NCBI GenBank assembly: GCA_951406725.2
Contig: OX597838.1
Span: forward strand, 30,504,001-30,568,000
DNA length: 64,000 nt
Source of the DNA: Octopus vulgaris
Taxonomy: Eukaryota
Reading direction: 5' to 3'
Both the position numbers and the translations under genes were made by a program. Of the stretch, positions 16,903 through 17,200 are shown one piece after another (positions within the stretch are counted from its first letter, which is position 1; each line of letters starts with the position of its first letter). Under the pieces are notes generated by a model. That model was not told the DNA's origin, made no database searches, and saw only the letters and a list, made by a program, of their open reading frames with translations.

Positions 16903-17200
16903 TTACGGAGATGTACTTGCATAGTAAGTGATTTGATCTGAGATCGTGTGCTGAAACGAAAACAACTGCAGCGTGGAAGGTGTTTGTAAGCCATTTAAGA
17001 AACACACAAAAGCCGTTCGATTCACTTCAACATTTAAGTTTAATTTGTCAAAATATTTTCGTCGCTTTAAGACCGCGCAGTGAACAGGTCGCAGTCTTAA
17101 AGCGATGAAAATATTTTGACAAATTATACTTAAATGTTGAAGTGAATCTAACGGCTTTTGTGTGTTTCTTAAATGGCTTACAAACACCTTCCATGCTGCA
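16903..17200. mobile_element. Fold-back element (111-bp arms) with hammerhead-like centre, probably Penelope-derived
   Basis: 16967-17077 inverted to 17090-17200; flanked by the direct repeat aaactgatattt. Confidence 0.8.
17078..17123 (+). ncRNA. Hammerhead-like motif with G3/C8 core variant; 5' strand of stem I truncated
   Basis: ca-GTGAACA-g-gtcgc..gcgat-GAAA-atat-TT-tgacaaa. Confidence 0.55.

Follow-up and report, generated by a model that had tools for sequence, protein, structure and literature searches.

A natural G3-C8 variant of the minimal hammerhead motif in a non-autonomous repeat family of Octopus vulgaris

In the structure of the active hammerhead, the pair between C3 and G8 stands out as a landmark. 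Natural core covariants carrying U3-A8 have been described (Perreault et al. 2011, PMC3088659; Cervera and de la Pena 2014, PMC4209133), and the reversed pair has been engineered: a C3G/G8C double mutant partly restores the hammerhead of a Penelope-like element (PLE; Frangieh et al. 2024, PMC11167929), and in a second mutational study the G:C swap was the sole rescuing double mutant reported for that core region (Roberts et al., eLife 2023, PMC9901934). Here we describe a natural counterpart, a repeat family designated F, which came to light through a single rearranged copy in a 64,000-nt stretch of the Octopus vulgaris genome (assembly GCA_951406725.2, contig OX597838.1, positions 30,504,001 to 30,568,000; hereafter the window, in which positions are counted from the first letter) and was then searched for in the whole 2.8-Gb assembly. 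The original prediction, drawn from the letters of the window, held that positions 3 and 8 had been exchanged together and that engineered versions of the same exchange partly rescue cleavage; the two mutational studies bear out the latter point, and the genomic copies the former. Comparison of F with two relatives, an older G3/C8 family (O) and a C3/G8 sister family (C), leads us to lean towards the view that the intact F motif would self-cleave, weakly and as dimers, within a PLE-mobilised family that carries G-C at 3-8.

Intact copies of the motif are abundant. A 20-mer joining TTTGTCA to the G3/C8 core has 6,323 exact matches in the genome and its reversed control has none, so that TTTGTCA does lie directly 5' of GTGAACA, where it supplies the strand complementary to TGACAAA and completes a type-I minimal hammerhead; a 24-mer from the 3' part of F has 10,446 exact matches. 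Among 74 arms on one contig, picked by this 3' 24-mer without selection on the core, G3 is found in 53 of 54 and C8 in 53 of 57, which establishes both letters as fixed in the family, and U4, G5, A6 and A9 are intact in F as well as in O. The same 74 arms vary at the subfamily level within the leader and ribozyme, namely in the leader itself, in loop II and at one stem I position that turns G-U. A letter other than G at position 3, with A, C or G at position 8, occurs in 195 matches to the 20-mer pattern; among the 100 of these that were listed, C3 is present in 10 and C3-G8 in none. A canonical C3-G8 subfamily inside F was considered and rejected, C3 being found at 0 of 20 fetched G8 loci (17 G, 2 A, 1 T), and nine fetched C3-G8 matches proved to be four members of family C and five unrelated sequences.

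In two intact F copies, stems I and II form the minimum-energy structure (z -2.2 and -2.3), with a stem I of 7 bp that encloses the core. F and O depart from the literal core C3 U4 G5 A6 N7 G8 A9 in their G3 and C8, and both retain a palindromic stem III (AAUAUU in F, AAUU in O), for which marginal duplex energies are predicted (-0.2 and +2.2 kcal/mol); G12 A13 A14 A15.1, U16.1 and an H at position 17 are also present. A search for CUGANGA misses such a family by construction, as had been foreseen. Rfam is less telling: at gathering thresholds it finds nothing in the window, and none of its hammerhead models recognises a locus of F, C or O when E is relaxed to 10. Because the canonical C3/G8 sister is missed as well, this result is uninformative about the swap.

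The 3-8 pair covaries naturally between families, being G-C in F and O and C-G in the homologous family C. Family O has 89 pattern matches, and 18 of 30 fetched loci were assigned to it by eye; its consensus is identical to that of F at 153 of 195 positions (78%). In 17 intact O copies, read through the 3' half only (2 of 19 copies were dropped as truncated at the core), position 3 is G in 11, A in 6 and C in none, and position 8 is C in 13, U in 3, A in 1 and G in none. The two families differ by compensatory changes in a stem II pair (G-C in F, A-U in O) and in the sixth pair of stem I (U-A versus G-C), and also in the length of stem III (6 versus 4 nt) and in N7 (A versus C); all 13 of 13 core letters are kept between them, a retention that is only modest evidence at p ~0.03 against a background identity of 77%. 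Separately, the A3 seen in 6 of the 17 O copies (L303, L304, L309, L313, L314 and L318) is somewhat above what simple decay would lead one to expect, and two of these six also carry U8 but lack A9.

Family C, with 77 exact matches, combines the canonical C3/G8 core with stem I and II letters nearly those of F, and has a stem III, AGAUUU, that by inspection could self-pair with two G-U pairs. Its homology extends downstream of the ribozyme: none of 1000 dinucleotide shuffles reaches the consensus score (obtained with the 9 of 30 copies that have a long tail), and a profile of the downstream parts of F and O matches C loci at the corresponding place (best E 8e-6). Over 47 distinct rows from the three families the 3-8 pair is GC in 24, CG in 17, GU in 1 and unpaired in 5, counts that lean towards structure in that the O and C copies were found by patterns fixing part of the motif. 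Because these rows form three related groups, they record one swap event, not many. In a tree, F and C are each supported as groups (100/99), with O between them in no resolved grouping; the tree is unrooted and so does not give the direction of the swap, but since C3-G8 is the rule elsewhere we infer G3-C8 to be derived. Other repeat families hold further candidate canonical C3-G8 minimal hammerheads (L094:281; L095, minus strand, 828; L186:~500).

The anatomy of the copies points to the means by which F spread. PLE insertions are recognised by a 3' tail, described as 30–40 nt long, and by characteristic inversions (PMC8557442; PMC11167929). F copies are ~150 or ~205 nt long, and their 3' ends are bimodal, with 35 of 74 near 145–154 and 37 of 74 at ~204, so that the longer form carries a tail of ~55 nt as against the 30–40 nt described; 45 of the 74 arms were flagged as inverted, and most of the flanking sequence is AT-rich or made up of TA repeats. 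Inverted 5'-truncated arms, an optional 3' tail and AT-rich targets are the hallmarks of a PLE-mobilised non-autonomous element, and on the basis of the inversions, the two 3' ends and the AT-rich targets it is likely that F is mobilised by a PLE.

The 5' ends are also patterned, clustering ~24 nt before G3 (45 of 74 arms start at reference positions 1–10). Eleven long F copies extend further upstream, the longest of them (L329, L330 and L331) sharing 600–800 nt of microsatellite-rich non-coding sequence, and a branch-point-like, pyrimidine-rich motif with CAG closes the upstream sequence of these long copies, precisely at the 5'-end cluster, where short copies have G in 23 of 40 and long copies have C. 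Such a sharp 5' end fits either a capped start or a splice junction, and the upstream part could be an intron of a pseudo-long terminal repeat (pLTR) or a promoter; neither a donor site nor an open reading frame (ORF) was found upstream of the long F copies, and inversion microhomology accounts for some of the 5' ends. Whether the 5' end is a start or a splice junction, the RNA that was copied contained the whole ribozyme.

F does not have the organization of an autonomous PLE, in which pLTRs flank an ORF for a reverse transcriptase (RT) plus GIY-YIG protein. An intact 781-aa RT/GIY-YIG PLE is abundant in the same genome and could act on F in trans. A comparison of GIY-YIG loci, PLE loci and long F copies revealed no sequence link between F and this PLE, and F matches only 1 of 30 GIY-YIG loci, where it lies as an insertion. 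One locus (L071) entertained as a parent of F turned out to be an F insertion into another repeat; F is inserted there and at L083 into an abundant short repeat resembling a miniature inverted-repeat transposable element, which is flanked by TA and whose terminal ends are apparently inverted (L084–L101). As to the 781-aa PLE itself, a young autonomous element, its ORF is preceded by a second one of ~350 aa without a Pfam match, and a U3-A8 hammerhead-like motif stands in both of its direct repeats, 5.55 kb apart (L077:237–270 and L077:5787–5820). The motif recurs in L074, L076 and five GIY-YIG loci; one genome therefore holds the 3-8 pair as C-G, as U-A and as G-C.

Tandem units of 150–400 nt, each with a hammerhead, are a trait of retrozymes, and within F they are confined to a minor subfamily. 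These arrays, of 166–196-nt units, occupy ~19 loci on four contigs and share one common junction (75 matches), with 27 units within 6 kb at one locus. This array subfamily (L075, L112–L129) is concentrated on contig C28 and reaches ~30 units at one locus, each unit containing a TA run whose length varies. The arrays invite the explanation that F is an efficient retrozyme of the non-LTR kind (LTR, long terminal repeat), whose tandem units cleave, circularise and are reverse-transcribed by rolling circle. Their ends speak for linear templates instead. Of 17 array loci, 13 start at the normal family 5' end or at the long upstream form, and arrays often end with the tail; both the 5' start and the tail lie outside the repeat unit and could not be supplied by a one-unit circle, and the source was thus presumably a linear, uncut multimeric RNA. 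Given also that arrays make up just 75 of more than 10,000 matches, we regard the retrozyme explanation as very unlikely.

Several observations weigh against cleavage by F or against parts of the comparison on which we base it. Array starts are one, and in general the genomic footprints favour uncut templates, from which F copies as well as arrays would derive: among truncated arms, 2 of 24 in a first set and 1 of 11 in a second have a 5' end within 3 nt of the cut site, which equals expectation. (In the first set, 6 of 24 arms had their 5' end immediately beyond the 3' side of stem I, with p 0.01; this clustering was a post hoc observation that was not repeated in the second set, 1 of 11, and was set aside.) The 3-8 pair is evidently not needed for mobilisation, because G3-G8 copies (~270, from 91 of 100 listed among 303 matches) outnumber C3-C8 copies (~20, with a stricter pattern); some G3-G8 copies share diagnostic letters between loci, and mismatched sources were therefore mobilised too. 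Structure prediction is no kinder, in that G3 is predicted to wobble with U17 (P 0.68, compared with 0.99 for a C at 17), an inactive trap, and a natural tandem dimer does not have the double hammerhead as its minimum-energy fold. To regard U17 as an adaptation to G3 is attractive but weak, since U17 is common in C3-G8 PLE hammerheads. No ORF of their own was found for F, O or C in 79 O/C-pattern loci, 10 loci of 8 kb and 6 long F copies of 8–10 kb; stem I of family C has an imperfect junction; and the modest core retention and the pattern-based sampling of O and C mentioned above belong to the same side.

Such observations can be accommodated by a true hammerhead descendant that is catalytically dead, its fold kept as a structural or protein-binding element and the swap having aided escape from self-destruction. 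Uncut templates and arrays and the spread of G3-G8 copies speak for it, and insertion in vitro by the anole PLE was reported to be unimpaired by ribozyme mutants (PMC11167929). Yet a dead motif would have no need of the Watson-Crick 3-8 pair, GAAA, U16.1 and palindromic stem III, all of which have been kept over 22% consensus divergence, and engineered ribozymes with this swap show partial activity (PMC11167929; PMC9901934). We therefore judge a dead scaffold unlikely, while granting that the footprint negatives do not separate a weak from a dead ribozyme: the anole PLE likewise used uncut RNA and its ribozyme required protein (PMC11167929), so that absent cleavage footprints are expected of a weak PLE ribozyme. 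The 20 runs under four organism labels that contain the stretch do so as contigs, which show neither start, strand nor cleavage, and no RNA record containing it was listed. A further alternative is that G3 was fixed for another reason, as a splice-acceptor G or part of a promoter element, and that its match with C8 is coincidental. A pyrimidine run plus CAG does stand directly before U4, and in Drosophila virilis a PLE intron has been described that ends at helix I (PMC4209133). F copies, however, begin ~24 nt before the U4 region and not at U4, with the better acceptor-like motif at that upstream point, and the joint change of C8 with G3 between families would be left unexplained; we consider coincidence highly improbable.

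A weakly self-cleaving motif in a PLE-mobilised element could operate as follows. A PLE RT-GIY-YIG protein, acting in trans, would reverse-transcribe an RNA that starts ~24 nt before G3, beginning at two internal sites ~55 nt apart and giving rise to AT-rich insertions with inversions and target duplications. Palindromic stem III would pair two copies, G3-C8 would stand in for C3-G8 as the tertiary pair, and the RNA would be cut after U17 slowly or with the help of protein, and for this reason mostly uncut RNA would be copied. It is enticing to speculate further that an active G3-C8 lineage arose once from a C3-G8 relative via an inactive intermediate and was selected through at least two amplification waves, its attenuated ribozyme letting uncut RNA retrotranspose, and that G3-C8 families of this sort make up a hidden class that escapes searches for CUGANGA and UUGANAA. 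We offer this history tentatively, as a possibility suggested by sequence comparison that we would not yet favour.

The copy in the window is a family F insertion rearranged by inversion. The whole inverted insertion, made from the ~205-nt repeat, spans 16903–17201 between 12-bp AT-rich target-site duplications (16892–16903 and 17200–17211). Its plus arm (17078–17201) ends at the first, short family 3' end; the inverted arm on the minus strand (16903–17077) starts inside stem II without the core, keeps GCGAC as had been noticed, and extends as far as the second 3' end, so that it comprises the ~55-nt tail. Every letter named in the original prediction for 17078–17123 is at its position on the plus strand. 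Stem I retains only CA of its 5' strand (17078–17079), the remainder of the TTTGTCA seen in intact copies having been lost at the inversion junction, as the prediction also stated. The core, positions 3–9, is GTGAACA with G3 and C8 (17080–17086), and stem II pairs GTCGC (17088–17092) with GCGAT (17102–17106) around a 9-nt loop, its closing pair being G10.1-U11.1 as opposed to the G-C of the family majority (C in 49 of 61). G12 A13 A14 A15.1 (GAAA) follow at 17107–17110, then the palindromic stem III AATATT (17110–17115), predicted to pair between two copies. Hammerhead numbering places U17 at 17116, with cleavage predicted 3' of it in an intact dimer, and the 3' strand of stem I, TGACAAA, occupies 17117–17123. 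The extra G between A9 and G10.1 (17087) is an inserted position typical of PLE minimal hammerheads (PMC4209133).

By itself, the 46-nt window fragment folds no better than shuffled sequence (z 0.11), and with its flank it adopts a single long hairpin (z -11.7). The two arms, of 111 nt, are 95% complementary, and RNA from the locus is accordingly predicted to form one long hairpin; given this hairpin and a stem I 5' strand reduced to two letters, the window copy is predicted to be unable to fold as a hammerhead and to be inactive. The element was inserted into older repeat sequence: a repeat at 17212–17444 (minus strand) is flanked by a 20-bp target duplication (16883–16902 and 17445–17464), and the hammerhead element was inserted later, into the left copy of that duplication. 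We take this older repeat to be akin to a short interspersed nuclear element (SINE), neighbouring repeats presumably resembling octopus SINEs.

In the literature examined, the reversed 3-8 pair is known solely from mutagenesis, and here it characterises a family that occurs naturally in more than 10,000 copies. Our literature search, which was not exhaustive and does not establish absence from print, found engineered cases of G3-C8 only, and a term search of 11 supplement files of the U3-A8 study did not find this core (PMC3088659). F, its older G3-C8 relative and its C3-G8 sister provide, in one genome, a natural series for a two-step compensatory change; they are relevant to the question of whether selection on PLE hammerheads favours good cleavage, poor cleavage or none, and they imply that descriptor-based censuses undercount hammerheads.

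The F motif is thus a PLE-type minimal hammerhead with a natural variation in its core; it resides in a non-autonomous element and fails the literal consensus. With the metazoan PLE minimal hammerheads it shares the type I topology, the extra base between A9 and G10.1, the G10.1-C11.1 pair and the palindromic stem III, as well as thousands of dispersed copies, opposite-strand pairs and a low expected activity (PMC4209133). It differs from the 56 representatives listed there in its G3-C8 pair, since these are C3-G8 except for two with U3-A8 and one with U3-G8, and none is G3-C8; in its extra base, which is G in F and in 1 of those 56; and in having no linked ORF that could be found. Like the non-LTR retrozymes (Cervera and de la Pena 2020, PMC7229834; bioRxiv 10.64898/2026.07.22.740005), F is non-coding, carries a type-I hammerhead, forms some 166–196-nt arrays and is presumed to depend on PLEs; unlike them, it consists mostly of dispersed monomers and inverted pairs, has a minimal, swapped core and ends its arrays in a manner that fits linear uncut templates rather than circles. 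The natural U3-A8 covariants are, like G3-C8, compensatory changes of the tertiary pair, but they keep a pyrimidine at 3 and a purine at 8 and are reached by transitions (PMC3088659), whereas G3-C8 reverses the pair and requires two transversions via a mismatch. The closest precedent remains the engineered C3G/G8C exchange (PMC11167929, PMC9901934, PMC8495972, PMC3884650), an identical swap reported as partly active in laboratory mutants and found here fixed in two natural families.
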